Both the position numbers and the translations under genes were made by a program. 40,331 nucleotides of DNA, taken from NCBI GenBank assembly GCA_016793965.1, contig JAEULF010000114.1, positions 1 through 40,331 on the forward strand. The letters are read 5' to 3'. Below the pieces are notes generated by a model, which had not been told where the DNA came from, did not search any database, and saw only the letters and a program-made list of their open reading frames with translations. This stretch comes from Alphaproteobacteria bacterium (lineage in GTDB: Bacteria; Pseudomonadota; Alphaproteobacteria; JAEULF01). This document shows positions 13,654 through 32,288 of the stretch, in pieces (position 1 is the stretch's first letter; every line of letters starts with the position of its first letter).

Positions 13654-13728
13654 GCGCCTCCTCGAACGTCGCGCCGGGGCCACGGCCAATCCCTGGACAT
13701 GGCCGGCAAGGCGGGCCATCTCAGAGGG

Positions 13729-14484: not shown

Positions 14485-14491
14485 GACCGCC

Positions 14492-15247
14492 ATGCAGTGG
14501 CTCCTCCTGGGCATCGTCCTCCTCGTCGTCGTGCTCTGGCTGTCGGGCCGCTTTGCCGGTGCCGACCCGGCGGCGCTCGCGCGCCGGCTGCGCTCCATGC
14601 CCTGGCAAGTCGTCGCGCTCGGCGCTGGCGCGATCGTCGGCCTCGTTCTGCTGCTGACCGGCCGGATCAGCCTGCTGCTGACGCTGGTTGCGGTCGGGTT
14701 GCCGTTCTTCGTGCGATGGGGGCAGCTCTGGAACCGCATCAAGGCTGCGACCGGGCCGACATCGGGCGGGCGCTCCGAGGTCGTGACGCGCACGCTGAAG
14801 GTGGCGCTCGATCATGACACAGGCGCCGTTTCCGGCACCGTGCGCGCCGGTCGCTACGAGGGCCGCGCGCTCGGAAGCCTGGCGCTCGACGAGCTGCTCG
14901 ACCTCCTGGAGACCTGCCGTGCCGACGACCCGGACTCGGCGGCGCTGGTCGAGGCCTATCTCGACCGCGAGCACGGCCCGGATTGGCGCGGCGGCCCAGG
15001 CGGCGGCCCAGGCGGCGGCCAGGGAAGCGGAGCGGGCAGCGGCCCTGTGCCGCCCGGACGCGGGGGCGACATGAGCGTCGCCGAGGCGTTGCGCGTGCTC
15101 GGCCTCGACGAGCAGGCGGATGCAGAGGCGATCAAGGCCGCGCATCGACGCATCCTTCAGCGCGTGCACCCCGACCGCGGCGGCTCGGCCGCTCTCGCTG
15201 CCCAGGCCAACCGGGCGCGCGATGTTCTCCTCAGGCGCGAGCGCTGA
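14492..15247 (+). CDS. Membrane-anchored protein with C-terminal DnaJ (J) domain
   Basis: N-terminal TM segments, Gly-rich linker, then EALRVLGL...IKAAHRRILQRVHPDRGGS with the HPD motif. Confidence 0.88.
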   Translation: MQWLLLGIVLLVVVLWLSGRFAGADPAALARRLRSMPWQVVALGAGAIVGLVLLLTGRISLLLTLVAVGLPFFVRWGQLWNRIKAATGPTSGGRSEVVTRTLKVALDHDTGAVSGTVRAGRYEGRALGSLALDELLDLLETCRADDPDSAALVEAYLDREHGPDWRGGPGGGPGGGQGSGAGSGPVPPGRGGDMSVAEALRVLGLDEQADAEAIKAAHRRILQRVHPDRGGSAALAAQANRARDVLLRRER

Positions 15248-15326
15248 CGGGTCGCGCGCCACCTTCCGGTGTCGCGCCGCGCGCGGAACTACCTTATGGT
15301 CGCGCCGGCATGAGGAGCCTGCGGGC

Positions 15327-15854
15327 ATGGTGCTGCCGATCCGGGCCGAGGAACGGGCGATCGAGAGCCTCGGCGATGAGACCCTTCGTCCGCTGCTGCA
15401 GGCCTGGCGAGCGCTCAAGGGCGAGCGGCCCTGGCTGGATCGCGCGTCGCTTCTGCCGGAGCGGCTGCCCGCAGCTGCCTTGCCGCACATGGCTCTGCTC
15501 GAGCGCGTGCCGCCGGACGCGGAGCATGCGGACACGGCGGATTTCCGCATTCGCATCGTCGGGGACGAGATCGAGAACCGCCGGCTCGGCTACGTGCGCG
15601 GCGCCCTGGTGAGCGGCATCCGGCCGGATTGGTACGCGCAGCACTTGCTGGACGGCTACAGGCAGTCCTGCCGCGAGGCGCGGCCGCTCTACCAGCGCGT
15701 CACCGCGATCCATCCGGAGGAGGACATGCACTACGAGCGCCTTCTCCTGCCGATGAGCGCGCGCGGCGCTGCGGCAGACATGCTGCTCGTCGCGTCCGTG
15801 CGGTCGCGCGCGCTCGTCCGCTTCATGACGTACGAGGAGAAGGACGAGAGCTGA
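15327..15854 (+). CDS. Stand-alone PAS-domain (PAS_5-like) protein
   Basis: LLQAWRALKGER...LPHMALLE...DFRIRIVG...YERLLLPM pattern; GAGGAG upstream. Confidence 0.7.
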   Translation: MVLPIRAEERAIESLGDETLRPLLQAWRALKGERPWLDRASLLPERLPAAALPHMALLERVPPDAEHADTADFRIRIVGDEIENRRLGYVRGALVSGIRPDWYAQHLLDGYRQSCREARPLYQRVTAIHPEEDMHYERLLLPMSARGAAADMLLVASVRSRALVRFMTYEEKDES

Positions 15855-15878
15855 AGCCGGCGAGCGGGCTGCGTCCGC

Positions 15879-16208
15879 TCAGGCGCGCTCCAGTCGGCCT
15901 GCGACCGCCTCCATCCGCGTCGCCGTCGCCTCGAGGCTGGTCGCGAACGTCTCGATCAACGTCGCCGTCGCGGCTTCCACCTCGGCAGTCTTCGATCCGT
16001 GCCGGCGCTGCAGGTCGGCAACCTCGTCGGCCAGCTTCAAGGCGACCATGACGAGCAGGCGCAGCTCGCCGACGTCGCCGACGGCGCCCTTGAGCCCTTG
16101 CAGCTCCGCCTCGATCCGCTCGCCCAGCGCGATGAAGTGCGCCTCCTCGCCGTCGGCGCAGCCGATGCGGTAGGTCTTGCCATTGATGGTGAGGGTGACG
16201 TTGGCCAC
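15879..16208 (-). CDS. zapA: Cell division protein ZapA
   Basis: GTG start; ANVTLTINGKTYRIGCADGEEAH...VGELRLLVMVALKLADE matches alphaproteobacterial ZapA. Confidence 0.88.
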   Translation of the reverse strand: MANVTLTINGKTYRIGCADGEEAHFIALGERIEAELQGLKGAVGDVGELRLLVMVALKLADEVADLQRRHGSKTAEVEAATATLIETFATSLEATATRMEAVAGRLERA

Positions 16209-16218
16209 GGTGCCGCCC

Positions 16219-16692
16219 TCAGCCGCCGGCGCGCGCGGGCGGCGCGCCGCTGTGCTCGCCAGGAGCCTCTGCGTCTCCTGCGCCGTCCTGCAGCGCCCCG
16301 TCGTCGTCTCCTGCGTCGTCGTCGCCTGCGTCGCCCTCGGGCAAGGGCTCCGGATCGGCCAGCGCCTCGTGCGCGCGCAGCAGCGCCTCGTCCAGCCGGT
16401 CCGCTGCCTGGCGCACGAGCGTCTTGAGCGAGTCCCGCTCTGACTGGACCACGCGCAACGCTTCCGCCAGGTGACGCCTGTCCGTCTCGACCGCTGATTT
16501 CCGCGCGAGGATGCCGACGGCCGCCGTCTCCAGCCGCGCCAGCGCGACGTCGAGGCGCATGCGCGCGTGCTCCAGGGCCCGCTCGGGCGACACGCGCGGC
16601 GCGCTAGCGCCGGCGGCGCCTGCCACGGCACCAGGGGGCGATCCCGCGGCATCGGCAGGTGCGAGCAGCGTCTGCGTCTCCTTGCGCGTCAC
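16219..16692 (-). CDS. Coiled-coil protein upstream of zapA (DUF4164-like position) with acidic tail
   Basis: ALEHARMRLDVALARLETA coiled coil; ends 10 nt before zapA; GAGGTGG upstream of the GTG. Confidence 0.65.
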   Translation of the reverse strand: MTRKETQTLLAPADAAGSPPGAVAGAAGASAPRVSPERALEHARMRLDVALARLETAAVGILARKSAVETDRRHLAEALRVVQSERDSLKTLVRQAADRLDEALLRAHEALADPEPLPEGDAGDDDAGDDDGALQDGAGDAEAPGEHSGAPPARAGG

Positions 16693-16716
16693 CGAGCAGA
16701 CCCACCTCGTGCGGCG

Positions 16717-16783
16717 GCGGCGCCGACAGCAGCGCCGCTGCCGCGACCAGAGGGGGCGCGCGGCAATGGGGTCAATCAGGGGG
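16717..16783. repeat. 67-bp direct repeat, left copy; contains the putative minus-strand promoter of the zapA operon
   Basis: 62/67 identical to 28701-28767. Minus strand reads TTGACC-N18-TCTGGT. Confidence 0.9.
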
Positions 16784-16902
16784 GGAAGGCGCCGGTCCGG
16801 CGCGAGGCCTGGGAGCTCGCCGCGGCTCGCCGCGGCTGCTCGGCCGGCGCAGGCTGGCGCCGCGTCCGCGGCGCCAGCCTGGCGCGCTCGTCGCGCGGAT
16901 CG

Positions 16903-17109
16903 TCAGCGGACGAGGTCGAGGATGCGCTGGTACATCGGCATGTCGGCATGCCCTGCTGCATAGAGCAGCACGCGGCCGAGCACGATGGCGGCCACCGCCA
17001 GCGCGCTTGCCGACGCGATCAGCACCGCCTTCAGCACCGGCCGGAGAGCCGCCACGGCCTCCGGCTGGAGCGCGTTGAAGCCGACGTGACGCAGTGTCAG
17101 GGCGAACAT
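16903..17109 (-). CDS. Small hypothetical single-TM protein divergent from kdp
   Basis: 68 aa with hydrophobic VLIASASALAVAAIVLG; GGAG upstream. Confidence 0.5.
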   Translation of the reverse strand: MFALTLRHVGFNALQPEAVAALRPVLKAVLIASASALAVAAIVLGRVLLYAAGHADMPMYQRILDLVR

Positions 17110-17207
17110 CGGAAGGTACTCCGGAACGTTGTGCCGCCCCGATCGGGCGGTACGCTGAAGGTCGTGCCGGGCGCATCAATCTTCGATGGGATTCGGCGCC
17201 TCCGTTG

Positions 17208-17316
17208 ATAAGCAGGTCATAAGGAAGATCGCTGCCGCTCTTGAGCTTTCGCATGGCCGCGGCCGCCTTTACGTGTCCCTTACAGGCGCATCCGGGGTTT
17301 CCCATCGACCCTTTAC
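17208..17316. promoter_or_regulatory. Putative KdpE (OmpR-family) binding repeats
   Basis: CTTTAC (17267) and CCTTAC (17278) are 11 bp apart, with a third CTTTAC (17311) in helical phase. An opposite-strand CTTAT pair (17208, 17219) is also 11 bp apart. Confidence 0.5.
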
Positions 17317-17365
17317 GGGCGACTCCCCTAATCCTCGTCGCGCTCGCGAAACGCGGAGGCAAGCC

Positions 17366-17449
17366 ATGAGCGACCTCTACTTCCTGCTGCTCGGCCTCGG
17401 GGTGTTCGCCCTGATGGCGCTCTACGCGCGGCTCTGCGCGCGGCTCTGA
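17366..17449 (+). CDS. 27-aa hydrophobic peptide upstream of kdpF
   Basis: GGAGG RBS; MSDLYFLLLGLGVFALMALYARLCARL. Confidence 0.65.
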   Translation: MSDLYFLLLGLGVFALMALYARLCARL

Positions 17450-17459
17450 GGAGGTTCCT

Positions 17460-17546
17460 ATGCTCGACCTGATCGTCGGCGCCGTCGTGGCGGCCGGCTT
17501 GGGCGCTTACTGCCTGTATGCGCTGCTCAATCCCGACAAGTTCTGA
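17460..17546 (+). CDS. kdpF: K+-transporting ATPase subunit F
   Basis: GAGGAGG RBS; [28 protein letters not shown] has the KdpF YxxYALxxPxKF ending and lies directly before kdpA. Confidence 0.9.
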
Positions 17547-17594
17547 GCCGCGGCACGCCCGAAACCCGGCGTGCCCTGAGCGTGGAGACCCGTC

Positions 17595-19322
17595 ATGACC
17601 CCGAACGGCTGGCTGCAGATCGCCGTCTTCTTCCTTCTCGTCCTCGCCACGGCGAAACCGCTCGGCGCGCTGATGGCGCGCGTCTTCGCCGGCGAGCGCA
17701 CCTGGCTCGATCCGGCGCTGGGCCCGGTCGAGCGCGGCCTCTACCGCGCGGCGGGCGTCGACCCGGCGCGCGAGCAGGGCTGGCTCGGCTACACCATGGC
17801 CATGCTGGCGTTCAACGCGCTCGGCTTCGCGAGCCTGTACGCGATCCTGCGCTTGCAGCACCTGCTGCCGTGGAACCCGCAGGGCCTGCCGGCGCTCTCG
17901 CCGCATCTCGCCTTCAACACGGCCGTCAGCTTCACCACCAACACGAACTGGCAGTCCTACGGCGGCGAGACGACCATGAGCTACTTCTCGCAGATGGTCG
18001 GGCTGACCTTCCACAACTTCGTGTCGGCCGCGACCGGCATCGCGCTCGCCATCGCGCTGGTGCGCGCCTTCGCGCGCAGCTCGGCGCAGACGGTCGGCAA
18101 CTTCTGGGTCGACCTGACGCGCGCGACGCTCTACGTGCTCCTGCCGCTCTCGCTCGTCGTCGCGCTCGTCCTGGTGGCGCTGGGCATGCCGCAGACGCTC
18201 GGTGCCTATGTGGACGCCGTGACCGTCGAGGGCGCCAAGCAGTCGATCGCCGTCGGGCCGGTGGCGAGCCAGGTCGCGATCAAGCAGCTCGGCACCAACG
18301 GCGGCGGCTTCTTCAACGTCAACTCGGCGCATCCCTTCGAGAACCCGACGATCTGGACCAACCTGGTCCAGTCCTGGGCGATCCTGGCGCTCGCCGCGGC
18401 GCTGGCCTGGACGTTCGGGCAGATGGTCGGCGACCGCCGGCAGGGCTGGGCGGTGCTCGCCGTCATGGGCGTCATCCTGGTCGGCGCCACGGGCGTCGCC
18501 TACTGGGCGGAGGCCGGCGGCAACCCGATCCTCGCCGCGCAGGGCGTCGACCAGGCGGCGATCGCGCTCCAGTCCGGCGGCAACATGGAGGGCAAGGAGG
18601 TCCGCTTCGGCGTCGCCCAGTCGGCGATCTGGGCGGCGGCGACGACCGGCGCCTCGAACGGCTCGGTCAACTCCATGCACAACAGCTACATGCCGCTGGG
18701 CGGGCTGGTGCCGCTCGTGCTCATCCAGCTCGGCGAGATCGTGCCGGGCGGGGTCGGCTCCGGCCTCTACGGCATGCTGGTGATGATCGTCATCGCGGTC
18801 TTCGTGGCCGGGCTCATGGTCGGACGCACGCCCGAGTACCTCGGCAAGAAGATCGAGGCCAGGGAGGTCAAGATGGCCATGCTCGCCGTCCTGATCCTGC
18901 CCTTCTGCATCCTGGGATTCACCGCGATCGCCGCGGCGCTGCCCGGGCCGCAGGAAGGCCTCGCCAACGCCGGCGCCCGCGGCTTCACGGAGATGCTCTA
19001 CGCGTTCTCCTCGGCGACCGGCAACAACGGCAGCGCCTATGCCGGGCTGACCGCCAACACGCCCTTCTGGAACACCACGCTGGGCATCGCGATGCTGCTC
19101 GGCCGCTTCGCCTACATCGTGCCCGTCATGGCGATCGCCGGCTCGATGGCGGGCAAGGTGCGCGTGCCGACCAGCTCGGGCACCTTCCCGACGCACGGGC
19201 CGCTGTTCATCGGCCTGGTCGTCGGCGTGATCCTCATCCTCGGCGGGCTGCAGTTCTTCCCGGCCTTGGCCCTCGGTCCCGTCGTCGAGCACTTCCAGAT
19301 GCTCGCCGGCAGGACCTTCTGA
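17595..19322 (+). CDS. kdpA: K+-transporting ATPase subunit A
   Basis: [43 protein letters not shown]. Confidence 0.98.
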
Positions 19323-19351
19323 CCGCACGCAATCAATCGAGGCGCACTCCC

Positions 19352-21397
19352 ATGAAAGCGCAAGCCATCTCGCTGTTCGACGCGGCCATCCTCAAGGAGG
19401 CCGCCGTCGCCGCGGTCCGCAAGCTCGATCCGCGCACGCTGGTGCGCAACCCCGTCATCTTCGTGACCGAGGTGGTGGCGGCGCTTGCCACGGCGGTGCT
19501 CGTCCGCGACCTGCTCGCCGGCCCCTCCGGAGCTGGCGGCTCGCACGCCTTCACCGGCCAGATCGCCGCCTGGCTGTGGTTCACCGTGCTGCTCGCCAAC
19601 TTCGCCGAGGCCGTCGCCGAGGGCCGCGGCAAGGCGCAGGCGGCGACCTTGCGCCGGACGCGCACGGACACCAAGGCCAAGCGCCTGCTGCACGAGGGCA
19701 CCGACATCTTCGAGCCGGTCCCGGCGCGCGAGCTGCAGAAGGGCGACCTGGTGCTGGTCGAGGCGGGCGACGTCATCCCGGCCGACGGCGAGGTCTTCAT
19801 GGGCGTCGCCTCGGTCAACGAGTCGGCGATCACCGGCGAATCGGCGCCGGTCATCCGCGAGGCCGGCGGCGACCGCTCGGCGGTCACCGGCGGCACCACC
19901 GTGCTGTCCGACTGGATCCGCGTGCGCATCACCGCGACGTCGGGCAGCTCCTTCCTTGACCGCATGATCGCGCTGGTCGAGGGCGCGCAGCGCCAGAAGA
20001 CGCCGAACGAGCTCGCGCTGAACGTGCTGCTCGCCGGCATGACGCTGATCTTCCTGATCGCCGTGGTGACGCTCTGGAGCATGGCGGCCTACGCCAAGAC
20101 CGAGCTGTCCGTGCCGGTCCTCGTGGCGCTGCTCGTGACCCTCATCCCGACCACGATCGGCGGGCTCCTCTCGGCCATCGGCATCGCCGGCATGGACCGC
20201 CTGGTGACGTTCAACGTGCTCGCGATGTCCGGGCGCGCCGTCGAGGCGGCGGGCGACGTCGACACGCTGCTGCTCGACAAGACCGGGACGATCACCTACG
20301 GCAACCGCATGGCGACCGAGCTGCTGCCCGTGCCGGGCGTCTCCCGCGAGGAGCTGGCGCGCGCCGCGCTGCTCTCCTCGCTCGCCGACGAGACGCCGGA
20401 GGGCCGCTCGATCGTCGCCCTGGTCGCCGAGCGCACCGGCATCGCCGCGCCCGACCTGGCCGGCCGCCAGGCCAAGTTCGTGCCGTTCTCGGCCCAGACG
20501 CGCATCAGCGGCGTCGACCTGGACGGCACGCCGATCCGCAAGGGCGCCGTCGATGCGATCCTCGCGACGGCCAGCGACACGCCGCCGAACGAGTTCCGCG
20601 CCGCCGTCGAGCGCATCGCGCGCACCGGCGGCACGCCGCTCGCGGTGGCGCAGGGCGGCCGCCTCCTCGGCGCGATCCACTTGAAGGACGTGGTCAAGCC
20701 CGGCATCAAGGGCCGCTTCGAGGCGCTGCGCCGGATGGGAATCCGCACGGTCATGGTGACCGGCGACAACCCGGTGACCGCCGCCGCGATCGCCGGCGAG
20801 GCCGGCGTCGACGACTTCATCGCCGAGGCGACGCCCGAGCACAAGCTCCGCTACATCCGCGCGCGGCAGGACGAGGGCAGGCTGATCGCCATGTGCGGCG
20901 ACGGCACCAACGACGCGCCCGCGCTCGCCCAGGCCGACGTCGGCGTCGCCATGCAGACCGGCACGCAGGCGGCGCGCGAGGCCGGCAACATGGTCGACCT
21001 CGACTCCAACCCGACCAAGCTCATCGAGGTCGTCGAGATCGGCAAGCAGCTCCTGATGACGCGCGGAGCCTTGACGACCTTCTCGATCGCCAACGACGTC
21101 GCCAAGTACTTCGCCATCATCCCGGCGCTGTTCGTGGCCTCGCTGCCCGAGCTGGGCGCGCTCAACGTGATGGGCCTGGCCTCGCCCCAGAGCGCCATCC
21201 TGTCGGCGGTGATCTTCAACGCGCTGATCATCGTCGCGCTGATCCCGCTGGCGCTGCGCGGCGTCGCATTCCGCCCGGCCTCGGCCGCGTCGGTGCTGCG
21301 CCGCAACCTGCTCGTCTACGGCGTCGGCGGCGTGGTGCTGCCCTTCGTCGGCATCAAGCTCGTCGATCTCGCCCTCGTCGCCCTCGGACTCGCGTGA
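19352..21397 (+). CDS. kdpB: K+-transporting P-type ATPase subunit B
   Basis: TGES, DKTGT (phosphorylated Asp), [23 protein letters not shown]. Confidence 0.98.
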
Positions 21398-21408
21398 GGA
21401 GTTGCACC

Positions 21409-21975
21409 ATGCTCGCCCATCTCCGCCCCGCCATCGTCATGGTCGCCGGCTTCACTCTGCTGACCGGCGTCGCCTATCCGCTTGCCGTCACCGGCATCGC
21501 GCAGGTCGCCTTCCCGGCGCAGGCTTCCGGCAGCCTGGTCGAGCGCGACGGCAAGGTCGTCGGCTCGCGGCTGATCGGACAGGCCTTCGCGAGCGACAAG
21601 TACTTCCGCCCCAGGCCGTCGGCAGCCGGCGAGAAGGGCTGGGACGCCGCCGGCTCGAGCGGCTCGAATCTCGGCCCGCTCTCGGCCAAGCTCGTCAAGC
21701 GCGTGCAGGAGGACGCCGCCGCGCTGCGCGGCGCCGACGCCGGCGCCCGCGTGCCGGTCGATGCGGTCACGACCTCGGGCAGCGGCCTCGACCCGCATGT
21801 CACTCCGGCCAACGCGCTCGGCCAGGCGAAGCGCGTCGCCGCTGCGCGGGGCCTCGCCGAGGACAAGGCCCGCGCCCTCGTCGAGCGGCATGTCGAGGAG
21901 CGCGCGCTGGGATTCCTCGGCGAGCGGCGCGTCAACGTGCTGCAGCTCAACCTGGCGCTCGACGGCCTGAGGTAA
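21409..21975 (+). CDS. kdpC: K+-transporting ATPase subunit C
   Basis: LRPAIV...[38 protein letters not shown]. Confidence 0.96.
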
Positions 21976-22061
21976 GGCGCCGGGCGTTAAGGCGCGGGGC
22001 GGCGATGCTGGCGCGTTGACGCCGGCCCGCGCCGGGCGCAGCTTGCCGCAGAGGAGGACGC

Positions 22062-24782
22062 ATGGCCGATCGCGCGGACCAGGAGCCGGCCCGGCCGTCG
22101 CCGGAGGCGCTGCTCGCGGCGGCCTCGAAGGAGGGCAGGGGCAGGCTCAAGGTCTTCCTGGGAGCGGCACCGGGCGTCGGCAAGACCTACGCCATGCTGC
22201 AGTCCGGGCGCCGCGCCAAGGCGGACGGCGCGGACATCGTCGTCGGCATCGTGGAGACGCACGGCAGGCGCGAGACCGAGGACCTGCTCGCCGGGCTGGA
22301 GATCCTGCCGCGCCGCGCCGTCGAGTACCAGGGGCGGGTCCTCACGGAGCTCGACCTCGACGCGGCGCTCAAGCGCAAGCCGAAGCTCGTCCTGGTCGAC
22401 GAGCTGGCGCACACCAACGCGCCGGGATCGCGCCATCCCAAGCGCTACCAGGACGTCGGCGAGCTGCTCGACGCCGGCATCGACGTCCACACGACGCTCA
22501 ACGTCCAGCACCTGGAGAGCCTCAACGACGTCGTGCAGAAGATCACGCGCATCCGCGTGCGCGAGACGCTGCCGGACCGCGTGCTCGAGGAGGCCGACGA
22601 GGTCGAGCTGGTCGACATCACGCCCGAGGAGCTGATCAAGCGGCTCAAGGAGGGCAAGGTCTACGTCCCCGGCAACGCGCAGCGGGCGCTCGACCACTTC
22701 TTCAAGGCCGGCAACCTGACGGCGCTGCGCGAGCTGGCGCTGCGCCGCACCGCCGAGCGCGTCGACAGCCAGATGGTCGACTACATGCGCCGGCACGCCA
22801 TCGAGGGTCCCTGGCCGGCCGGCGAGCGCATTCTCGTCTGCGTCGGGCCGGACCCGCTCGGGCCGGAGCTGGTGCGCACAGCGCGCCGGATGGCCGACCT
22901 GATGAGCGGCTACTGGGTCGCGCTGCACGTCGAGCGGCCGGGCCAGGCCGGCCTCGCCGAGGCGGAGCAGGCGCGCGTCGACGAGACGCTGCGCCTCGCC
23001 GAGCACCTCGGCGGCGAGGCGGTGCGCATCCTCGGCGACGACCTGCCGGGCGAGCTGCTGCGCTACGCGCGCGGCCACAACATCACGCAGGTCGTGCTCG
23101 GGCGGGTGCGCAGCTCGCGCTGGGCCGTGCTGACGCGCCGCTCGCTGGTGCACGAGGTCGTGCGCCGCAGCAGCGGCATCGCCGTGCACGTCATCACGGG
23201 CGAGCCCGGCGAGGCGGCGGCGCCGGTGCCGGATAGGCGGCCTGCCGCTGAGGGCTGGCTTCCCGCCTCCCTCGCGGCGACGGCCGCGGTCGCCGCCGCC
23301 GTCGGCGTCGCGGTCGGCATCGACGCGATGCTCGACCTGCCGAACCTGTCGATGATCTTCCTGGCGTCCGTCCTGTTCTGCGCGATCCGCTACGGCATGG
23401 CGGCATCCGTCCTGGCGTCGCTGCTCTCCTTCCTCGCCTACAACTTCTTCCTGATCGAGCCGCGCTACACGTTCAGCGTCAGCGACGGCAGCGACCTGCT
23501 CTCGCTGCTCGTGTTCCTGGCCGTCGCCATCCTGACGAGCGGGCTGGCCGGGCGCGCGCGCGACCATGCCGCGGCGATGCGCGCGCGCTTCAAGTCGACC
23601 CAGGCGCTCTACGACTTCAGCCGCAAGCTCGGCGCCACGGCGCGGGCCGACGACCTGCTCTGGGCGGTGGCGCAGCAGGTTGCCGCCGCGGCCGGCGGAC
23701 GCAGCGTCGTGCTGCAGCCGGAGACCGGCGAGCTGGCATTGGCCGCCGCCTTCCCGCCCGACGAGGCGCTGGAGGTGGCGGACTGGGCGGCGGCGCGCTG
23801 GGCCTGGGAGAACGGCGAGGTCGCCGGCCGCGATTCGGCGACGCTACCCTCGGTCAAGTGGCAGTTCCGCCCGGTGCGCACGGCGCGCGGCATGGTCGCC
23901 GTGGTCGGCGTCCGCCCGAAGGACGACGGGCGCGCGCTGCGCAGCGAGGAGCTGCGCATGCTCGACGCGCTGCTCGACCAGGCGGCGGTGGCGTTGGAGC
24001 GCGCCGACCTGGTCGCCGAGGCGGCGGAGGCCGAGGCGATCGCCCAGACGGAGCGCCTGCGCACCGCGCTGCTCTCCTCGATCTCGCACGACCTGCGCAC
24101 GCCGCTCGCTTCGATCCTCGGCTCGGCGACGAGCCTGCTCGCATACGGCGAGAGCTTCTCTCCGGCCGCGCAGCGCGACCTGCTGGTCACCATCCGCGAC
24201 GAGACCGAGCGGCTTTCCCGCTTCGTCGCTAACCTGCTGGACATGACGCGGGTCGAGTCCGGCGCGCTCGAGATCAAGCGCGACTGGGTCGACATTGCCG
24301 AGCTGTGCGGCTCGGCGGCCGGCCGCGTCGCCGGATTCCTCGGCGCCCGGCGCCTGCAGCGAAGCGTGGCGGCGGACCTGCCGCTGCTGCGGCTCGACTT
24401 CGCCCTGATGGAGCAGGTGCTCTTCAACCTGCTCGACAACGCCGTCAAGTATGGCCCGGACGGCAGCGCCATCGCGCTGCGCGCTGCGCGCGACGGCAAC
24501 GCCGTGACCATCGCGGTGGAGGACGAGGGGCCGGGCATCCCGCCTGGCGACCTGGAGCGCGTCTTCGACAAGTTCTACCGCGTGCACCGCGGCGATGCGG
24601 CCGTCGCCGGCACCGGCCTCGGGCTGTCGATCTGCCGCGGCATCGTCGAGGCGCTGGGCGGCACGATCAGGGCGCGCAGCCCGGTGCGCGCCGGGCGCGG
24701 CACCGCTGTCGAGATCCGCTTCCCGGCGCCGGCTGCCGATGCGGCGCCGGCCGCCGCCGGCGCCGAGCGGCCCGTCGCCTGA
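22062..24782 (+). CDS. kdpD: Sensor histidine kinase KdpD
   Basis: GAAPGVGKTYAML (KdpD domain), USP-like region, 4 TM, GAF-like region, SHDLRTPL H-box, GTGLGL G-box. Confidence 0.97.
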   Translation: MADRADQEPARPSPEALLAAASKEGRGRLKVFLGAAPGVGKTYAMLQSGRRAKADGADIVVGIVETHGRRETEDLLAGLEILPRRAVEYQGRVLTELDLDAALKRKPKLVLVDELAHTNAPGSRHPKRYQDVGELLDAGIDVHTTLNVQHLESLNDVVQKITRIRVRETLPDRVLEEADEVELVDITPEELIKRLKEGKVYVPGNAQRALDHFFKAGNLTALRELALRRTAERVDSQMVDYMRRHAIEGPWPAGERILVCVGPDPLGPELVRTARRMADLMSGYWVALHVERPGQAGLAEAEQARVDETLRLAEHLGGEAVRILGDDLPGELLRYARGHNITQVVLGRVRSSRWAVLTRRSLVHEVVRRSSGIAVHVITGEPGEAAAPVPDRRPAAEGWLPASLAATAAVAAAVGVAVGIDAMLDLPNLSMIFLASVLFCAIRYGMAASVLASLLSFLAYNFFLIEPRYTFSVSDGSDLLSLLVFLAVAILTSGLAGRARDHAAAMRARFKSTQALYDFSRKLGATARADDLLWAVAQQVAAAAGGRSVVLQPETGELALAAAFPPDEALEVADWAAARWAWENGEVAGRDSATLPSVKWQFRPVRTARGMVAVVGVRPKDDGRALRSEELRMLDALLDQAAVALERADLVAEAAEAEAIAQTERLRTALLSSISHDLRTPLASILGSATSLLAYGESFSPAAQRDLLVTIRDETERLSRFVANLLDMTRVESGALEIKRDWVDIAELCGSAAGRVAGFLGARRLQRSVAADLPLLRLDFALMEQVLFNLLDNAVKYGPDGSAIALRAARDGNAVTIAVEDEGPGIPPGDLERVFDKFYRVHRGDAAVAGTGLGLSICRGIVEALGGTIRARSPVRAGRGTAVEIRFPAPAADAAPAAAGAERPVA

Positions 24783-24791
24783 GGATGCCCG

Positions 24792-25487
24792 ATGAGCGAA
24801 TCCCTGCCGCGCGTCCTGGTGGTCGACGACGAGCCGCAGATCCAGCGCTTCCTGCGCCCGAGCCTCGGCGCCAACGGCTACGACATGATCGAGGCGGCGA
24901 CCGGTGCGGAGGCGCTGCGGCGCGCCGCCGCCGACGCGCCCGATGTCGTGGTGCTCGACCTCGGACTGCCGGACATGGACGGCAAGGACGTGATCCGCCA
25001 GCTCCGCGCCTGGTCGGAGGTGCCGGTCATCGTGCTCAGCGCGCGCGACCGGGAGGCCGAGAAGATCGAGGCGCTCGACCTTGGCGCCGACGACTTCGTC
25101 AACAAGCCCTTCGGCATCGGCGAGCTGATGGCGAGGCTGCGCGCCGCGCTGCGCCACCGCCTGCGCAAGGCCGGCGAGACGCCGGTGTTCCGCGCGGGAT
25201 CTCTCGTCGTCGACCTGGTGAAGCGTCTGGTGACGCGCGACGGCGAGCCGGTCCGCATGTCGCCCAAGGAGTACGACCTGCTGCGCGTGCTGGTGCAAGC
25301 GGCCGGACGCGTGGTGACGCACCGCCAGCTCCTTGTCGCGGTGTGGGGGCCTGCCCATGTCGAGGACACCCAGTACCTGCGCGTCTATGTCGGCCAGCTC
25401 CGCCACAAGATCGAGGACGACCCGACGCAGCCGAGGCTGGTGCTGACCGAGCCGGGCGTCGGCTACCGGCTGTTCGTCGAGGAGTGA
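24792..25487 (+). CDS. kdpE: Response regulator KdpE
   Basis: VVDDEPQI, LDLGLPDMDG, YLRVYVGQLRHKIE, TEPGVGYR. Confidence 0.96.
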   Translation: MSESLPRVLVVDDEPQIQRFLRPSLGANGYDMIEAATGAEALRRAAADAPDVVVLDLGLPDMDGKDVIRQLRAWSEVPVIVLSARDREAEKIEALDLGADDFVNKPFGIGELMARLRAALRHRLRKAGETPVFRAGSLVVDLVKRLVTRDGEPVRMSPKEYDLLRVLVQAAGRVVTHRQLLVAVWGPAHVEDTQYLRVYVGQLRHKIEDDPTQPRLVLTEPGVGYRLFVEE

Positions 25488-25589
25488 ACGGAGACGCGTC
25501 GCGAGCCATGCGGAGAGGCGAGGCCAGGTCACGCGTTCCGGCGAAGCGATCGATCGGCTATTGTCGAGACGGTTGAACGGGTGGAGAGC

Positions 25590-25994
25590 ATGGCGAACGT
25601 GGTCAGCAGGGCGAAGGCAGGGGAGGGGCAGGCGCGCATCGTGCCGGTGCTCGCCGCTGCGCTCTCGCTGCTCGTCGCCTCCTTCGCCGGCACGATGCCT
25701 GCCCCGCTGCCGATCTTGGCGCAGGCGGAGCGAAGCAGCCCCGGGATCGATGCGCCGCGACCCGGTGCGGCGGCGGCGATCCGGCAGTTCGTCGGGCTGC
25801 CATCGGCCGGCGACGCGCGCGATCGATCGGAGCGCGCGCTATGGCGCGGCGGCGAGGCGTCGGCAGTTCGGCCCGACGCCGCTCCTGGCCTCGACCTGCG
25901 GCGCGCGGCGACCGCTTCGGCGCCGATCGCGGAACCGCAGCGCGCTTCGGTGCCGGTAGCGGCGGCGCGGCCGCGCGGGCCGCCCGCGGCGTGA
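25590..25994 (+). CDS. Putative translation-arrest leader peptide (ApdP-like) upstream of secDF
   Basis: GGAGAG RBS; N-terminal signal-like segment IVPVLAAALSLLVASFAG; low-complexity linker; C-terminus ...AARPRGPPAA-stop. Confidence 0.7.
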   Translation: MANVVSRAKAGEGQARIVPVLAAALSLLVASFAGTMPAPLPILAQAERSSPGIDAPRPGAAAAIRQFVGLPSAGDARDRSERALWRGGEASAVRPDAAPGLDLRRAATASAPIAEPQRASVPVAAARPRGPPAA

Positions 25995-26001
25995 GCGATC
26001 C

Positions 26002-26034
26002 GCGCGCCGGCCGCAGCACCTGCGATCGGCGCGC
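26002..26034 (+). promoter_or_regulatory. GC-rich hairpin between the uORF stop and secDF
   Basis: GCGCGCCGGCCGCAG-CAC-CTGCGATCGGCGCGC: 13/15 Watson-Crick pairs plus one G-U; no U-tract. Confidence 0.45.
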
Positions 26035-26159
26035 CTGCATCGCCGTCGCGTTCCAGCACTAGAGCCATCGCCCCTGCGACCGTTCGCGGCCGTTGGCGCG
26101 CACGCGCTCCGCTGCGGCCGCAGACGGCTCCGCCGCCCCCGAATTCGAGAGCAAGCCCC

Positions 26160-28736
26160 ATGTTCCCCTCCCGCTGGAAGATCGCGGCCTACGCGATCGT
26201 CGTCCTAGCCGGCTGTCTGCTGGCGCTCCCCAACCTCCTGCCGCGCGAGGCGCTGTCGGCGCTCCCGTCCTGGCTGACGCGAGCCCAAGTGACGCTCGGC
26301 CTTGACCTGCGCGGCGGCTCGCACCTCGTGCTCGAGGTCGATGCCTCGGCGCTCAAGCGCGAGCGGATCGAGGCGCTGGCGACGGCGGCCCGCCCGGCGC
26401 TCAAGGAAGTTGGCCTCGGCGATGCCGAGGTCGCTTTCGACGCCGATGCCGTCACGGTCCGCCTGGCGGACGCCGCCAGGCGCGCGGACGCGCGCAAGGC
26501 TCTGCGCGGCCTCGGCGCGCCCGTTGGCAAGGCCGCGCTCGGCACCCTGCGCCCGGACATCGAGCTCGTCGAGGCGGGCGAGCGCGAGATCAAGGTCACG
26601 CTCAGCGAGGCCGGCATGGTCGAGCGGACCAATGCCGCCGTCGACCAGAGCCTGGAGATCATCCGCCGCCGCATCGACGAGGTCGGCGTCACCGAGCCGA
26701 CGATCCAGCGGCTCGGGCGCGACCGCATCGTCGTGCAGCTCCCGGGCGTGCAGGACCCCGGCCGCATCAAGGCGCTGCTCGGCAGCACGGCCAAGCTGAC
26801 CTTCCACCTGCTGCCGCCGGACTCGACCTCGCTCTCGGCCGGTCGCATGCGCCTGCTGCCCGGCGTCGAGCTGCTGCCCTATGCCGACGGCCGCGGCAAG
26901 CTGGCGATCGAGCGCCGGCCGATGCTCGGTGGCGACAGGCTGACGGACGCGGCGCCGGGCTTCGACCACCGCACCGCCGAGCCGCTGGTCTCGTTCAAGC
27001 TCGACGCTGCAGGGGCCAGGCGCTTCGCCGAGATCACCAAGGCGAACGTGGGACGGCCCTTCGCCATCGTGCTCGACGGAAAGGTGCTGAGCGCGCCTAT
27101 CATCCGCGAGCCGATCACCGGCGGCTCCGGGCAGATCAGCGGCAGCTTCACCGTCGCCGACGCCACCCAGCTTGCCGCCCTGCTGCGTGCCGGGGCGCTG
27201 CCAGCACCGCTCCAGGTGATCGAGGAGCGTACGGTCGGCCCCGACCTCGGCAGCGACGCGATCGCCGCCGGCACGGCCACCGGCCTGGCCGGCTTCGGCC
27301 TGGTGCTCGCCTTCATGGTGCTGCTCTACGGAAGCTGGGGCCTCGTCGCCAGCCTGGCGCTCGCGCTCAACGTGGTCCTCACCTTCGCCGCCCTCGGCTT
27401 GGTCGGCGCCACGCTGACGCTCCCCGGCATCGCGGGCATCGTGCTCGGCATCGGCCTCGCTGTCGACGCCAACGTGCTGATCAACGAGCGCATCCGCGAG
27501 GAGACCCGGCGCGGGCGCAGCGCCGTGGCGGCGCTCGACGCCGGCTTCAAGCGCGCCTATGGCACGATCGTCGATTCAAACGTCACGACGCTGCTCGCCA
27601 CCGTGCTGCTCTTCGCCTTCGGCTCCGGGCCGGTGCGGGGATTCGCCGTCACCATGGGGCTCGGCATTGCGATCTCGATGTTCACCGCGGTGGCAATCGT
27701 GCGCGCGATCATGGCGAGCTGGGTCAAGATCGCGCGGCCGAAGGCGTTCGCGATCGAGCCGCTGCTCTGGCGGCGCGGCGGCGGTGCGCCGCCGAAGATC
27801 GCCTTCATGCGCGGGCGCTTCCTCGGCATCGCCGTATCGCTCGTGCTGTCGCTCGCCTCGATCGGGCTGGCCGTCAAGCCGGGCCTCAACTTTGGGGTCG
27901 ACTTCCTCGGCGGCACGGTGATGGAGGTGCGCAGTCCGGCCCCGGCCGACCTCGGCCGGCTGCGCGGCACCCTCGATGGGCTTGGCCTCGGCGAGGTGGC
28001 GCTGCAGGAGCTTGGCTCGGCGTCCAACCTTCTCGTGCGCCTGGAGCGCCAGCCGGGCGGCGAGGCGGCGCAGCTCGACGCCGTCGCGCGCGCAAAGGCG
28101 GCGATCGCCGCCGATGCGCCGGGGGCGAGCTTCGAGCGCGTCGACATCGTCGGGCCGAAGGTCAGCGGCGAGCTGGCGCGCACCGGGATCCTCGCCGTCG
28201 TGCTCGCGAGCCTCGCGATGCTGGCGTACATCTGGTGGCGCTTCGAGTGGCAGTTCGCGGTCGGCGCCATCGCCACCCTGGTGCTCGACGTCACCAAGAC
28301 CATCGGCTTCTTCGCGCTCACCGGGCTCGACTTCAACCTCACGGCCATCGCGGCGCTGCTGACGCTGGTCGGCTACTCGGTCAACGACAAGGTCGTCGTC
28401 TACGACCGGATGCGCGAGAACCTGCGGCTCTACAAGGCGATGACGCTGCGCGACCTGATCGACATCAGCATCAACCAGACGATCGGGCGCAGCCTCTTCA
28501 CCTCGGCGACGGCCTTCCTGGCGCTGCTGCCGATGGCGGCGGCCGGCGGCACGGCGGTCGGCAGCTTCGCCGTGCCGATGCTGTTCGGCATCGCCGTGGC
28601 GGCGAGCTCGTCGATCTTCATCGCGGCGCCGATCCTGCTGTTCCTCGGCGACCGGCGGTTCGGGCGGCGAGGGCCGGGGGCGCATCCGGCCCCGGCAGAA
28701 GCGGCGCCAACAGCAGCGCCGCTGCCGCGACCATAG
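26160..28736 (+). CDS. secDF: Fused protein translocase subunit SecDF
   Basis: LGLDLRGG, VGPDLG, AVDANVLINERIREE, GVDFLGG, GYSVNDKVVVYDRMRE. Confidence 0.96.
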   Translation: MFPSRWKIAAYAIVVLAGCLLALPNLLPREALSALPSWLTRAQVTLGLDLRGGSHLVLEVDASALKRERIEALATAARPALKEVGLGDAEVAFDADAVTVRLADAARRADARKALRGLGAPVGKAALGTLRPDIELVEAGEREIKVTLSEAGMVERTNAAVDQSLEIIRRRIDEVGVTEPTIQRLGRDRIVVQLPGVQDPGRIKALLGSTAKLTFHLLPPDSTSLSAGRMRLLPGVELLPYADGRGKLAIERRPMLGGDRLTDAAPGFDHRTAEPLVSFKLDAAGARRFAEITKANVGRPFAIVLDGKVLSAPIIREPITGGSGQISGSFTVADATQLAALLRAGALPAPLQVIEERTVGPDLGSDAIAAGTATGLAGFGLVLAFMVLLYGSWGLVASLALALNVVLTFAALGLVGATLTLPGIAGIVLGIGLAVDANVLINERIREETRRGRSAVAALDAGFKRAYGTIVDSNVTTLLATVLLFAFGSGPVRGFAVTMGLGIAISMFTAVAIVRAIMASWVKIARPKAFAIEPLLWRRGGGAPPKIAFMRGRFLGIAVSLVLSLASIGLAVKPGLNFGVDFLGGTVMEVRSPAPADLGRLRGTLDGLGLGEVALQELGSASNLLVRLERQPGGEAAQLDAVARAKAAIAADAPGASFERVDIVGPKVSGELARTGILAVVLASLAMLAYIWWRFEWQFAVGAIATLVLDVTKTIGFFALTGLDFNLTAIAALLTLVGYSVNDKVVVYDRMRENLRLYKAMTLRDLIDISINQTIGRSLFTSATAFLALLPMAAAGGTAVGSFAVPMLFGIAVAASSSIFIAAPILLFLGDRRFGRRGPGAHPAPAEAAPTAAPLPRP

Positions 28737-28767
28737 GGAGCGTGCGGCAATGGGTTCAATCAGGGGG
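28701..28767. repeat. 67-bp direct repeat, right copy; overlaps the secDF 3' end and stop codon
   Basis: 62/67 identical to 16717-16783. Minus strand reads TTGAAC-N18-TATGGT. Confidence 0.9.
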
Positions 28768-28813
28768 CTGACGCGCCCGGGCGCCGCAGCGCCGGGCGGC
28801 CGAGGAGGGGTCG

Positions 28814-30496
28814 CTACCCCTGGCGCACGGTCCGGACGAAGGTTCCCACTTGGCCGCTCAGGGCGTCGGACTGGGCGGCGAGGGCCTGCGCGGCGGCGAG
28901 CACCTGGCTGGCTGCGGCGCCGGTCTCCTTGGCGGCCTGCTGGACCGACGCGACGTTGGCGGAGACCGTTCCCGTCCCCTGGGCCGCCTCCTGGACGTTT
29001 CGGGCGATCTCGGCCGTGGCGGCGCCCTGCTCCTCGACAGCCGAGGCGACCGAGGCCGTCACTGAGGTGATCTCCTGGACCGTGCCGGTCACGTGGGCGA
29101 TCATGCCCACGGCCTTGCGCGTCTCCTCCTGGATGGAGCCGATCTGAGCCTGTATCTCGTCGGTGGCCTTGGCCGTCTGGCCCGCGAGCGACTTCACCTC
29201 GGAGGCGACGACCGCGAAGCCGCGCCCGGCCTCGCCCGCGCGCGCCGCCTCGATCGTCGCGTTGAGCGCCAGCAGGTTGGTCTGGCCGGCGATCTGGTTG
29301 ATCAGCTTGACCACGTCGCCGATCCGCCCGGCGGCGCCGCTGAGGCTGTCGATCACGGCGTTCGCCGACTGCGCGGCCTCCCGCGCGCGTGCTGCGGCGT
29401 CCGATGCGGTCGTCATCTGGCGCGAGATCTCGTTGCTGGATGCCGACAGCTCCTGGGCCGCGGTCGCGACCGTCTGGACGTTGGCGTTCGCCTGCTCCGA
29501 AGCGGACGCGGCCGACGCGGTCTGGTGGCTCGTCCTCTCCGAGGCTGCCGAGAGGGCCGACGCCGTGCCCTGGAGCTGGGTCGCGGCGGCCGTCACGGCC
29601 TGCACGATGCCGCCGACGTCGCGCTCGAAGCTCTCGGCCAAGCGCTGGAGCATATCCCGCCGCTCCTGCTCGGCCCGCTGCTTCGCCGCATCCTGCTCCG
29701 AGCGCAGGCGCTGCGCCTCGGCCAAGCCGCGCTTGAACACCTCGACGGACCGCGCCATGCCGCCGACCTCGTCCTGGCGCTCCGTTCCCGGCACGGCGAT
29801 GCCCAATTCGCCCGCCGCGAGCGCCTGCATGGTGCGGGTCATGCCCAGCACGGGCTGCGCGACGGAGCGCGCGACGGCCCAGGCCAACGCGCTGCCGCCG
29901 CCGAGGCCGAGCGCGAGGAGGGCGACTGTGACCCAGAGCATCCAACGCGCGGCAGCTTCGGACGCTTCGAACTCCGTGCGCGCGACATCGAGCTGCAGCT
30001 CGACGAGCTGGCCGATCTTCTCCGACACCGGGTCGATCGCGGGATAGAGCCGCCTCTCGGCGAACTCCGCGAGCGCGCGCTGGTCGGCGCGCAGAAGGAT
30101 GCCGCGGAGCGCTTCGACGGAAGCGTCCGCGTCCCTCATCAGCGGAGCCAGTTCCGAGACCAGCTTGCGCTCGCGCTCGACCAAGAACGTCGCCAAGTAG
30201 CTCGCCATCTTTCCGCGTATCAAGGAGCTGGCCTTGTCGACCGATTCGACTCCCGCTGTCGCGGAGAGCGAGCCGCCGCGCACCTTGTGCGCCGTGTCGA
30301 CGATCGATACGGCGTAGGCGTCGGCGATGTCCTTGAGGTCGCGCAGCGGGACGACGCGGTCGAGATACACGGTCTCGAGGCCCTGCGCGGCGCGGCGCGC
30401 ACTGAGGATTCCCACGGCGCCGGAGATCGCGAGAATGGCGAGGAGCGATGCGACGAGCACGGCCAGGCGGCCGGTGATGCCGAGCTTCAAGTGCAT
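28814..30496 (-). CDS. Methyl-accepting chemotaxis protein (4-helix-bundle sensor, HAMP)
   Basis: TM-sensor([12 protein letters not shown])-TM-HAMP architecture; [34 protein letters not shown]; GGGAG RBS. Confidence 0.95.
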
Positions 30497-30924
30497 TGCT
30501 GTTCTCCCCCGCAAGGTAAGCGCGCCTTCGGGCTCCGCCACCCCACGCAGCGGGAGCGCCCGCCTGCGGACGATTAGAGTTCTTGAACCGCCGAGAACAT
30601 CAGGCGTCGGTGCTATGCCCGACGGCAGCATGAGCTCGAAAAGGGCTCTGACGTCCGGTCTAGGCGCTGCACATGCTCAACCGCGCAGGTTCAACCAACG
30701 GATAGCGAGGCGACGGCGCAGAGCGCGCGCAAGGTGCGCAACGCGCCGTCGGCTCCTCAAGAGGTCGACGTCGAGTGTCGGGCAAGGGCATTCGGGCATC
30801 AAGCGGCAGCCCCGTGTCTGCCGAGGCCGGCGGCTGCGCCGCGATCCGACCGGGCCCGGTCGCGCTGCCACGCGGAGAAACGTGTGGGCGTGCCGGGCCG
30901 CAGCGAGCGGGACTGTCCCGGCTG

Positions 30925-32127
30925 CTACGCCTCGGCCTCGCCCTGGCGGAACGGCGCGTACTCGGCCAGCGCCGCCATCTCGCGCGCGACGGCGCGCTTC
31001 TCGCGCTCGACGAAGTCGGCGACGGCGCGGCGGAAGCCGGGGTCGGGGATGTGGTGGGCGCTCCAGGTGGCGACGGGCAGGTAGCCCCGCTGGATCTTGT
31101 GCGTGCCCTGGGCGCCGGCCTCCACGCGCTTCAGCCCGCGGGCGATGGCGTGGTCGATGGCGGCGTAGTAGCAGGCCTCGAAATGCAGGAACTTGTACTC
31201 GCCGCGGCAGCCCCAGTTGCGGCCGTAGAGCGTGTCGCTGCCCTGGAAGTTGAGCGCGCCGGCGACCCAGTCGCCGTCCTTCTCCGCCATCACCAGCACG
31301 ACCCTGTCGGCGTAGCGCTCGCCGATCAGCTCGAAAAAGCCGCGCGTCAGGTAGGGCACGCCCCATTTGCGATCGCTGGTGTCGGTGTAGAAGGCGTAGA
31401 AGGCGTCCCAGTGGACGGGCTTCAGGTCGGCGCCCGACAGCAGGTGCAGCCGGATGCCCGATGCGAGCGCCTGCGCGCGCTCCTTGCGGATCATCTTGCG
31501 CTTGCGCGACGCGAGGCTGCCCAGGAAGTCATCGAAGGTCGCGTAGCCGCGGTTCTCCCAGTGGAACTGCTGGCCCTGTCGCAGCAGCCAGCCGCGCCGC
31601 TCGAACGCCGCGCGATCCGCCTCCTCCAGGAACGTCGCATGCGCGGAGGAGAGGTCGAAGCGGCCGCAGATCGCCTCGACCGCGTCGATCAGCAGGGAGC
31701 GCAGCGCGTCGGGCGTCGGGTCGTCGGGCAGCAGATCGGCGCGGACGAGGAGCCGCGGCCCCGTCGCCGGCGTGAAGGGAACGGAGAGCTGCAGCTTCGG
31801 GTAGTAGCGCCCGCCGGCGCGCTGCCAGGCCTCCGCCCAGCCATGGTCGAAGACGTACTCGCCATAGCTGTGGCTCTTGAGATAGGCGGGGGCGCAAGCG
31901 AGAAGCCGCCCGTCGCCGGAGCGCACCAGCACGTGCTGCGGCTGCCAGCCGGCCTCGGCCGACACCGAGCCGCTCTCCTCCAGGGCCTGCAGGAAGGCAT
32001 GCGCGAGGAAGGGATTGGCCGCGCCGGCGCAGGCGTCCCATTCCGCCGCGCCGACGGCGGCCAGGCGCGGCACGGCCGTGACGGCCGGCCCGCCGCTCAT
32101 GTTCGTCACGGTCGCCGCGCGCTTCAT
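30925..32127 (-). CDS. GNAT / FemAB-like (DUF482-type) protein
   Basis: NPFLAHAFLQALEESG, KSHSYGEYVFDHGWA, YYPKL, LYGRNWG, LHFEACYY, EAGAQGTHK. Start could be 32127 or 32100. Confidence 0.9.
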   Translation of the reverse strand: MKRAATVTNMSGGPAVTAVPRLAAVGAAEWDACAGAANPFLAHAFLQALEESGSVSAEAGWQPQHVLVRSGDGRLLACAPAYLKSHSYGEYVFDHGWAEAWQRAGGRYYPKLQLSVPFTPATGPRLLVRADLLPDDPTPDALRSLLIDAVEAICGRFDLSSAHATFLEEADRAAFERRGWLLRQGQQFHWENRGYATFDDFLGSLASRKRKMIRKERAQALASGIRLHLLSGADLKPVHWDAFYAFYTDTSDRKWGVPYLTRGFFELIGERYADRVVLVMAEKDGDWVAGALNFQGSDTLYGRNWGCRGEYKFLHFEACYYAAIDHAIARGLKRVEAGAQGTHKIQRGYLPVATWSAHHIPDPGFRRAVADFVEREKRAVAREMAALAEYAPFRQGEAEA

Positions 32128-32179
32128 GGCGCGAGGATGGAGAGAGACGGGCCGCGCGTCCAGCGCGCTGCGGCGAAGT

Positions 32180-32284
32180 GCCCCACCCCGGCCCTCCCCA
32201 TCGCTGTCGCGACGGGGAGGGGGAAGTCCGGCGCGCTTCCTTCCCCCTCCCGGTGCGAAGCATGGGGAAGGTCGGGGTGGGGCC
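32180..32284. repeat. REP-like palindromic intergenic element (two inverted units)
   Basis: CCCCACCCCGGCCCTCCCC...GGGGAGGG followed by CCCCCTCCC...GGGGAAGGTCGGGGTGGGG; the outer ends are mutually inverted. Confidence 0.7.
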
Positions 32285-32288
32285 TTGA

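Follow-up and report, generated by a model that had tools for sequence, protein, structure and literature searches.

Degenerate genomic islands and integrase-less elements that can be mobilised in cis, such as those known among the streptococcal integrative and conjugative elements (ICE) and cis-mobilisable elements (CIME), carry att-type direct repeats at their borders. Short direct repeats present in two copies are likewise a mark of the join points of tandem duplications and of ectopic templated duplications; to our knowledge, such duplication scars have rarely been documented at a distance of 12 kb. Here we analysed a DNA stretch of 40,331 nucleotides (nt) from an Alphaproteobacteria bacterium (assembly GCA_016793965.1, contig JAEULF010000114.1, positions 1 to 40,331; hereafter the window), in which a block of about 12 kb, carrying the potassium uptake operon kdpFABCDE and a fused secDF gene for protein export, lies between two copies of a 67-nt direct repeat.

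The locus resembles the ICE/CIME-type elements in that direct repeats some tens of bases long enclose a multi-kb cargo, among whose genes there is no recombinase. It differs from them in the gene whose 3' end the repeat covers, which belongs to the segment and is neither a chromosomal target gene nor a tRNA, and in that compositional contrast, a mobility-gene remnant and a partner element are all missing. With duplication scars it shares a short, two-copy, lineage-specific and non-dispersed direct repeat, accompanied by no enzymes and situated in intergenic and gene-end positions, but the copies fall neatly at the borders of complete operons, which is unexpected for scars. We tentatively favour, with less than even confidence, a single old insertion of an accessory segment into the spacer between a methyl-accepting chemotaxis protein (MCP) gene and zapA, the block now being fixed and the repeat an inert scar. 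The significance of the repeat finding is modest. The locus is a clean example that direct repeats around cargo genes are insufficient to call a genomic island, every other tested hallmark being missing. If the insertion is true, it would show how Kdp and ApdP-SecDF2, both accessory membrane modules, were placed together in an alphaproteobacterial lineage that is deep and unsampled, and how a gene can draw its last codons from the sequence of its landing site.

Borders and copy number of the repeat

Ungapped alignment of 16717-16783 with 28701-28767 gave 62 identities over 67 positions, thereby confirming the match described in an earlier note on this DNA. The maximal identical stretch between the copies is 24 nt. 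The five mismatches (16725/28709, 16750/28734, 16755/28739, 16759/28743 and 16771/28755) correspond to a divergence of 7.5%; at all five, the left copy has G or C and the right copy A or T, and one of them falls in the secDF stop codon (TAG on the right, GAG on the left). The copies and the sequences next to them are:

16717..16783, no strand: left repeat copy, 24 nt upstream (in the minus-strand sense) of the GTG start of a coiled-coil open reading frame (ORF); GAG at the position of the secDF TAG
16784..16812, no strand: possible decayed extension of the left copy, in register with 28768-28796; includes a short GC hairpin at 16789-16803
28701..28767, no strand: right repeat copy; the first 36 nt are the last 11 secDF codons and TAG (28734-28736), the other 31 nt are secDF 3' untranslated sequence
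28768..28798, no strand: spacer separating secDF from the convergent MCP gene; a GC hairpin occupies 28774-28798

Identity falls sharply at the left outer edge of the repeat (13/30 just outside), and similarity fades at the right edge, where 17 of 29 positions match in register. When flanks of 200 nt around both copies were aligned with gaps, the result was no better than with shuffled sequences. The right copy ends 46 nt before the stop codon of the convergent MCP gene, and the hairpin at 28774-28798 is, from its sequence, likely to be a bidirectional terminator, although the consensus scan did not call it.

The earlier note had proposed a search for further copies of the 67-mer in the genome. 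The organism's own assembly is metagenome-derived and fragmented (4.28 Mb in 481 contigs, 74.9% complete, 2.7% contamination). BLAST recovered the second copy with E 4.5e-22, the remaining matches being GC-rich fragments of at most 45 nt with E of at least 2e-4. A two-copy profile run over the 4.28 Mb in nhmmer with filters off found just these two copies (E 2.4e-19 and 4.9e-17), the next match having E 1.1. Since both searches gave two copies only, the repeat is neither a chance match nor dispersed in the assembled sequence. A dispersed intergenic family of the kind of repetitive extragenic palindromes (REP) or miniature inverted-repeat transposable elements (MITE) was therefore rejected within this 75%-complete assembly.

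A proposed insertion upstream of the zapA operon

The MCP gene, the coiled-coil ORF and zapA all lie on the minus strand, in the orientation that the earlier note had given. Taking away the block with one repeat copy leaves a compact spacer, consisting of the MCP stop codon, 46 nt with the hairpin, the 67-mer, 24 nt and the start of the coiled-coil ORF. This compact empty geometry, together with the complete transcription units in the block, speaks for an insertion. The genes of the block and of its flanks are:

15882..16205, minus strand: zapA (PF05164, E 1.8e-17 on a longer frame)
16219..16692, minus strand: 157-aa coiled-coil ORF upstream of zapA (DUF4164 match far below threshold, E 0.43)
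16903..17109, minus strand: hydrophobic ORF of 68 aa, transcribed divergently from kdp (CbtB-like match weak, E 0.0088, not reaching the cut-off)
17366..17449, plus strand: 27-aa strongly hydrophobic ORF, 10 nt upstream of kdpF (no family match)
17460..17546, plus strand: kdpF (PF09604, E 4e-08)
17595..19322, plus strand: kdpA (PF03814, E 1.6e-248)
19352..21397, plus strand: kdpB (E1-E2 ATPase and HAD hydrolase domains)
21409..21975, plus strand: kdpC (named from its translation and its place between kdpB and kdpD)
22062..24782, plus strand: kdpD, sensor kinase (PF02702, E 1.5e-100)
24792..25487, plus strand: kdpE, response regulator
25590..25994, plus strand: 134-aa upstream ORF (uORF), hydrophobic near its N-terminus; RGPP stands 2 residues ahead of the stop, and 165 nt separate the end of the ORF from secDF
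26160..28736, plus strand: fused secDF of SecDF2 type, 858 aa
28814..30631, minus strand: MCP gene, convergent with secDF (4HB_MCP, HAMP and MCPsignal domains)

The repeat-bounded block is made up solely of complete transcription units. Its gene content (a small ORF, kdpFABCDE, the uORF and secDF) is that attributed to it in the earlier note, but the repeats do not enclose these genes exactly, as the last 11 codons and the TAG of secDF lie inside the right copy. After the 68-aa ORF comes an inverted repeat (16850-16881). Within the block, the spacers measure 122, 256, about 100 and 165 nt, which are too short (about 100-256 nt) to leave room for remnants of mobility genes.

According to the insertion that we favour, the 12-kb segment, comprising the small ORF, kdpFABCDE and the apdP-like uORF with secDF2, would have landed between the chemoreceptor gene and the coiled-coil/zapA operon. 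About 67 nt, perhaps up to 96 nt, of the MCP/zapA spacer would have ended up on both sides of the segment. The secDF2 gene would have lost its own last codons and would now end in spacer sequence, which supplies 11 codons and TAG, while the left copy would have stayed in place as the leader region of the zapA operon. The block would since have become fixed as an ordinary part of the chromosome, the copies having drifted 7.5% apart, and it appears to encode no enzyme for its movement. We infer the event itself, its direction and the choice of the spacer as the duplicated part. That the copies lie at the borders of complete units would be explained by selection for intact genes. The event would be old, because the copies differ at 5 of 67 positions, as against 2 differences over 1028 nt between contigs of different studies.

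The insertion is also favoured because the modules brought together here are accessory ones that do not usually occur side by side. For comparison we took, from GTDB species, the 80 loci closest in SecDF (identity 58-69%; mostly with 10 kb on either side, some shorter; phylogenetically clustered, many from Rhizobiaceae). KdpA, ZapA and the three ORFs of the locus (coiled-coil, small and upstream) had no match near SecDF in any of them (0/80 each); generic kinase matches occurred in 18 and regulator matches in 4 (about 30-37% identity), and an MCP-like gene in one. With 21400-28800 as the query, none of the 677 matching plasmid records had a place covering at least 80% of it, and the best 15 places listed from these records all stopped at the end of kdpE. 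Sets of apdP and secDF2 have a patchy distribution according to published work, PMC10987492 included.

Several observations weigh against the insertion, and they also qualify the older proposal of an old integration, of which the geometry, fitting an insertion between MCP and zapA, and the 7.5% divergence, fitting its age, held up. First, we know of no mechanism that would duplicate a target of 67-96 nt without a site-specific recombinase. Every long ORF of the window was searched against Pfam, and those without assignment at the two ends of the block against PHROGs, and neither search gave a recombinase, transposase or phage-like family; a tRNA/tmRNA search found none in the window, in agreement with the earlier note as regards the block. 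The composition of the block is native: its GC content is 0.72, that of the flanks 0.71 and 0.73, and its tetranucleotide distance from the genome stands at the 76th percentile of 158 chunks of 12 kb, with the flanks at the 73rd and 89th. The nearest database relatives are equally far for block and flank proteins, the C-terminal half of SecDF having 72-76% and a Lon-like protease of the flank 71% identity. Direct repeats of attL/attR type (62/67) are the one island hallmark that the locus displays; the sole gene end under a repeat copy is that of secDF, inside the block, with no outside gene end and no tRNA/tmRNA, and neither an integrase or its remnant at a block end nor deviating composition was found. 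Nor does the block look like a transposon or insertion sequence, as there is no transposase family and the repeats are direct and 67 nt long.

A further point against the insertion comes from synteny. Around zapA we examined 20 loci with 8 kb on either side, taken from the best-scoring of 209 class genomes with a match. An MCP gene directly upstream of zapA on the same strand was found in 0/20 of these class-level loci, which says little at such distance; an MCP-like gene lay within 8 kb of zapA in four, and KdpA, SecDF and a FemAB-like gene of the flank were each near zapA in 0/20. The order is represented by this one genome in the genome set searched, and the 40 genomes taken as relatives are all from other families. 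The best match of the MCP protein among 12 loci in JGI metagenome contigs had 50% identity, and that of the Lon-like flank protein in a sample of 400 class genomes 58%. As the nearest protein relatives are only 50-76% identical, no genome is close enough to show the empty site.

Origin of the repeat and the secDF tail

Two more points tell against the insertion. The Ala/Pro-rich tail of SecDF runs unbroken over the left edge of the repeat (PAPAE|AAPTAAPLPRP), as would suit a native tail, and only one of the three frames gives such an Ala/Pro-rich reading at this tail. In the principal rival there was no insertion, and the left copy duplicates, as a stray piece, the 3' end of secDF2 with its tail, stop codon, 3' untranslated region and perhaps terminator hairpin. 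Such a copy could have arisen by a 12-kb tandem duplication, one copy of which was later deleted except for its far end, or as a short templated repair patch, and the bracketing of the block would be mere geometry. We consider this rather unlikely. In its favour are the natural setting of the right copy (gene tail, stop, 31 nt, hairpin), the smooth passage of the tail over the repeat boundary and the native composition of the block, outside which the assembly has neither a kdp operon nor a SecF domain. It would also agree with the polarity of all five mismatches, the right copy being a constrained parent and the left one free to drift towards its surroundings of 80% GC, but this polarity is marginal, a symmetric model giving a two-sided chance of about 1 in 16. 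Moreover, duplication and deletion would need two illegitimate events with all end points in short intergenic spaces.

The codons of the tail bear on which copy is original. Within the repeat, the 11 secDF codons have G or C at the third position (GC3) in 6 cases, as against a GC3 of 0.946 in the rest of the gene, and only 0.8% of 11-codon windows of secDF are that low. Four of the five A-ending codons of this part are common to both copies; the ancestral 67-mer was therefore already without the codon bias. In comparison with 119 homologues, the SecDF tail is long (31 aa; median 25, interquartile range 22-27), and 8 of its last 11 residues are Ala or Pro, a level reached by 1.7% of the homologues. 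The low GC3, the long tail and its Ala and Pro content argue that the repeat part of secDF is not long-standing coding sequence, and the low GC3 (6/11) with the atypical last 11 codons fits recruited non-coding sequence somewhat better than a stray copy. However, the length of the SecDF2 tail after the last conserved motif is highly variable (11-57 aa in the same homologues), so that a young, codon-unadapted native tail is plausible. The clues on the parent copy conflict, with tail length, Ala/Pro content, GC3 and mismatch polarity pointing in different ways. Integration is neither shown nor excluded; a stray copy of the secDF 3' end, with no movement of the block, gives the same picture.

Search for regulatory elements in the repeat

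The sharp limits of the repeat, with 92.5% identity over 67 nt and 59%, then chance level, directly outside, could also reflect selection on a cis element. The 67-mer would in that case be a promoter/operator or a minus-strand leader RNA, serving the zapA operon on the left and running antisense into secDF2 on the right. Two short hairpins are possible in both copies, four of the five differences lying outside the stems and the fifth changing a G-C to a G-U pair, and the minus strand has TTGACC in the left and TTGAAC in the right copy. However, five random changes would spare the stems with a chance of about 0.1, which makes the hairpin argument weak, and the folding energies of the 67-mer were no better than those of shuffled sequences (z -1.5, -1.3, -1.3 and -0.1).

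Promoter and terminator scans built on an E. coli-type consensus called nothing in either repeat region, including any sigma-70-like promoter, and the suggestion that a target had been duplicated at a promoter was not borne out. Rfam gave no family at the gathering threshold in the window and none at E <= 1 around either copy. The 67-mer showed no likeness to the leaders of zapA operons in 50 loci of class members, partly from the same genomes (mean score 9.9, control 10.3), or to the 3' ends of SecDF2 genes in 80 loci of class members (9.5, control 9.1). With no further copies in the assembly either, a selected cis element appears improbable. We give very little credence to a more elaborate scenario, in which a 12-kb module for K+ uptake and SecDF2 entered a promoter-bearing spacer without a recombinase and duplicated about 70-100 nt, a copy of the leader of the cell-division operon with zapA then lying antisense to secDF2, with rare amplification or loss under potassium or secretion stress.

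Junctions in independent metagenome contigs

Sequence near-identical to the window occurs in runs of 12 studies, and the samples containing the organism come from activated sludge, bioreactors and lakes. Logan contigs were aligned to 13000-32500 from four runs, each belonging to a different study. A contig of 1028 nt from run X1, which belongs to another study, covers 16608-17635 with 2 differences and no gaps, and passes through the left copy into both flanks. Among the contigs listed for run X3, which may be the source sample, seven of eight were identical to the window and one had a one-letter difference; an identical one (27722-28755) extends 55 nt into the right copy. No contig among those listed spans the right junction. 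These data bear on the suspicion of an assembly artefact, a chimera in which metagenome sequences were fused at the 24-mer common to both copies, for which the fragmented metagenome assembly (481 contigs, 2.7% contamination) and the lack of a listed contig over the right junction could be cited. Such a chimera is exceedingly unlikely in view of the X1 contig through the left copy, the agreement of the listed X3 pieces with the window up to 55 nt into the right copy, and the uniform composition over flanks and block. The copies are also not one sequence assembled twice, because five positions differ between them.

The same contigs were inspected for an excised form. No joint skipping 11,984 nt was present among the 15 of 951 joints listed; as rare variants are lost when contigs are built, this does not speak against excision. 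The block could be mobilisable still, either excised in trans by a recombinase encoded elsewhere, for which a 75%-complete assembly leaves room, or amplified or lost through recombination between the copies, and direct repeats around a complete, selectable cargo would suit such behaviour. But the copies differ at 5 of 67 positions and share at most 24 identical bases in a row, and the gene end that the repeat covers belongs to the block itself rather than to a chromosomal target gene. A pattern from the 24-nt repeat core had 0 matches in viral contigs, and a 141-nt repeat query against plasmids gave 5 matches only, of 36-45 nt and chance-level, in unrelated coding genes. Without the block, moreover, the assembled sequence would have no kdp operon and no SecF domain left. 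The older statement that the block could still excise or amplify thus found no support; present mobility is unsupported, and we judge it very unlikely.

The kdp operon of the block is the only one in the assembly. The SecD_SecF_C domain was found in the assembly twice in the secDF of the window, once in a secD gene on contig C469 and weakly in an AcrB-type pump. Contig C469 (L026:1079-3549, minus strand) carries yajC, secD (533 aa) and a DUF498 gene, without secF, and the fused secDF of the window is thus the only SecF domain seen in the assembled 75%.

The uORF and SecDF2

Three side observations are likelier to be useful than the repeat: a candidate RGPP-type ApdP uORF, the frequent position of SecDF2 genes beside K+ transport genes and a canonical sec locus without secF. 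ApdP is an alphaproteobacterial arrest peptide encoded upstream of secDF2, as described by Sakiyama et al. 2021 (PMC7897499) and Fujiwara et al. 2024 (PMC10987492), and the former looks for such peptides among small ORFs (80-200 aa) of no known family directly upstream of a sec gene. The uORF at 25590-25994 encodes 134 aa, matches no Pfam or PHROGs family and ends 165 nt before secDF, as expected of such a small ORF. Reading of its translation revealed an N-terminal hydrophobic run, IVPVLAAALSLLVASFAG, after basic residues, and its C-terminal RAPP-like motif is RGPP, 2 residues before the stop. From these features we propose it as a candidate ApdP-type arrest peptide before a SecDF2-type gene.

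The unit is similar to the ApdP-secDF2 units of these two papers in having a small uORF with a hydrophobic N-terminus and a C-terminal RAPP-like motif before a second, fused secDF. It differs in having RGPP instead of RAPP, and in a spacer of 165 nt as compared to 75-145 nt in relatives, and arrest is here predicted from sequence. RGPP supports arrest according to PMC12992588. Among the 80 related loci, 79 could be scored (one was dropped for want of upstream sequence), and 72 of these showed the same layout, with an ORF whose end lies 75-145 nt ahead of SecDF and whose stop is preceded, at a distance of 1-11 residues, by RAPP or RGPP. As for the gene downstream, the SecD and SecF halves lie in one ORF of 858 aa, and the canonical yajC-secD-DUF498 locus is found separately on contig C469. 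The SecDF2 identity of the gene agrees with the related loci, in which yajC or DUF498 stood beside the SecDF homologue in 0/80.

The Kdp genes agree with the known high-affinity K+ uptake system KdpFABC with KdpDE in that all six genes are present in the usual order. They differ in the extra 27-aa hydrophobic ORF before kdpF and in the secDF2 neighbour, this adjacency being found in 0/80 related SecDF2 loci. The 27-aa ORF could encode a second KdpF-like peptide or a leader peptide.

In 29 of the 80 related loci (L027-L106; clustered, many Rhizobiaceae), a KefB/C-like antiporter gene (Na_H_Exchanger and TrkA_N domains) stands directly beside SecDF2, on either side. Its counterpart in the window is the Kdp K+ uptake system at 17460-25487. 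A functional link between SecDF2 and K+ or ion homeostasis is possible. The main text of PMC10987492 makes no mention of such a link ('antiporter' and 'kdp' occur 0 times), the literature search on this point not being exhaustive.

Other features of the window

The 6S RNA gene ssrS lies downstream of zapA in many proteobacteria. Rfam gave no such match at the gathering threshold downstream of zapA (15300-15882), where a weak match to an unrelated small RNA was obtained at 15300-15378 (E 0.32). Another direct repeat of the window, of 216 nt with 78% identity (29140-29355 and 39350-39565), is explained by two MCP paralogues (28814-30631 and 39024-40331), in which the signalling domain is conserved. 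Close to the second paralogue, matches to DUF5615 and DUF433 adjoin each other (38326-40092 and 38703-38990, both on the minus strand); the DUF5615 frame overlaps the MCP paralogue at 39024-40331, which makes this ORF call doubtful. A pairing of DUF5615 with DUF433 is known from toxin-antitoxin-like modules.

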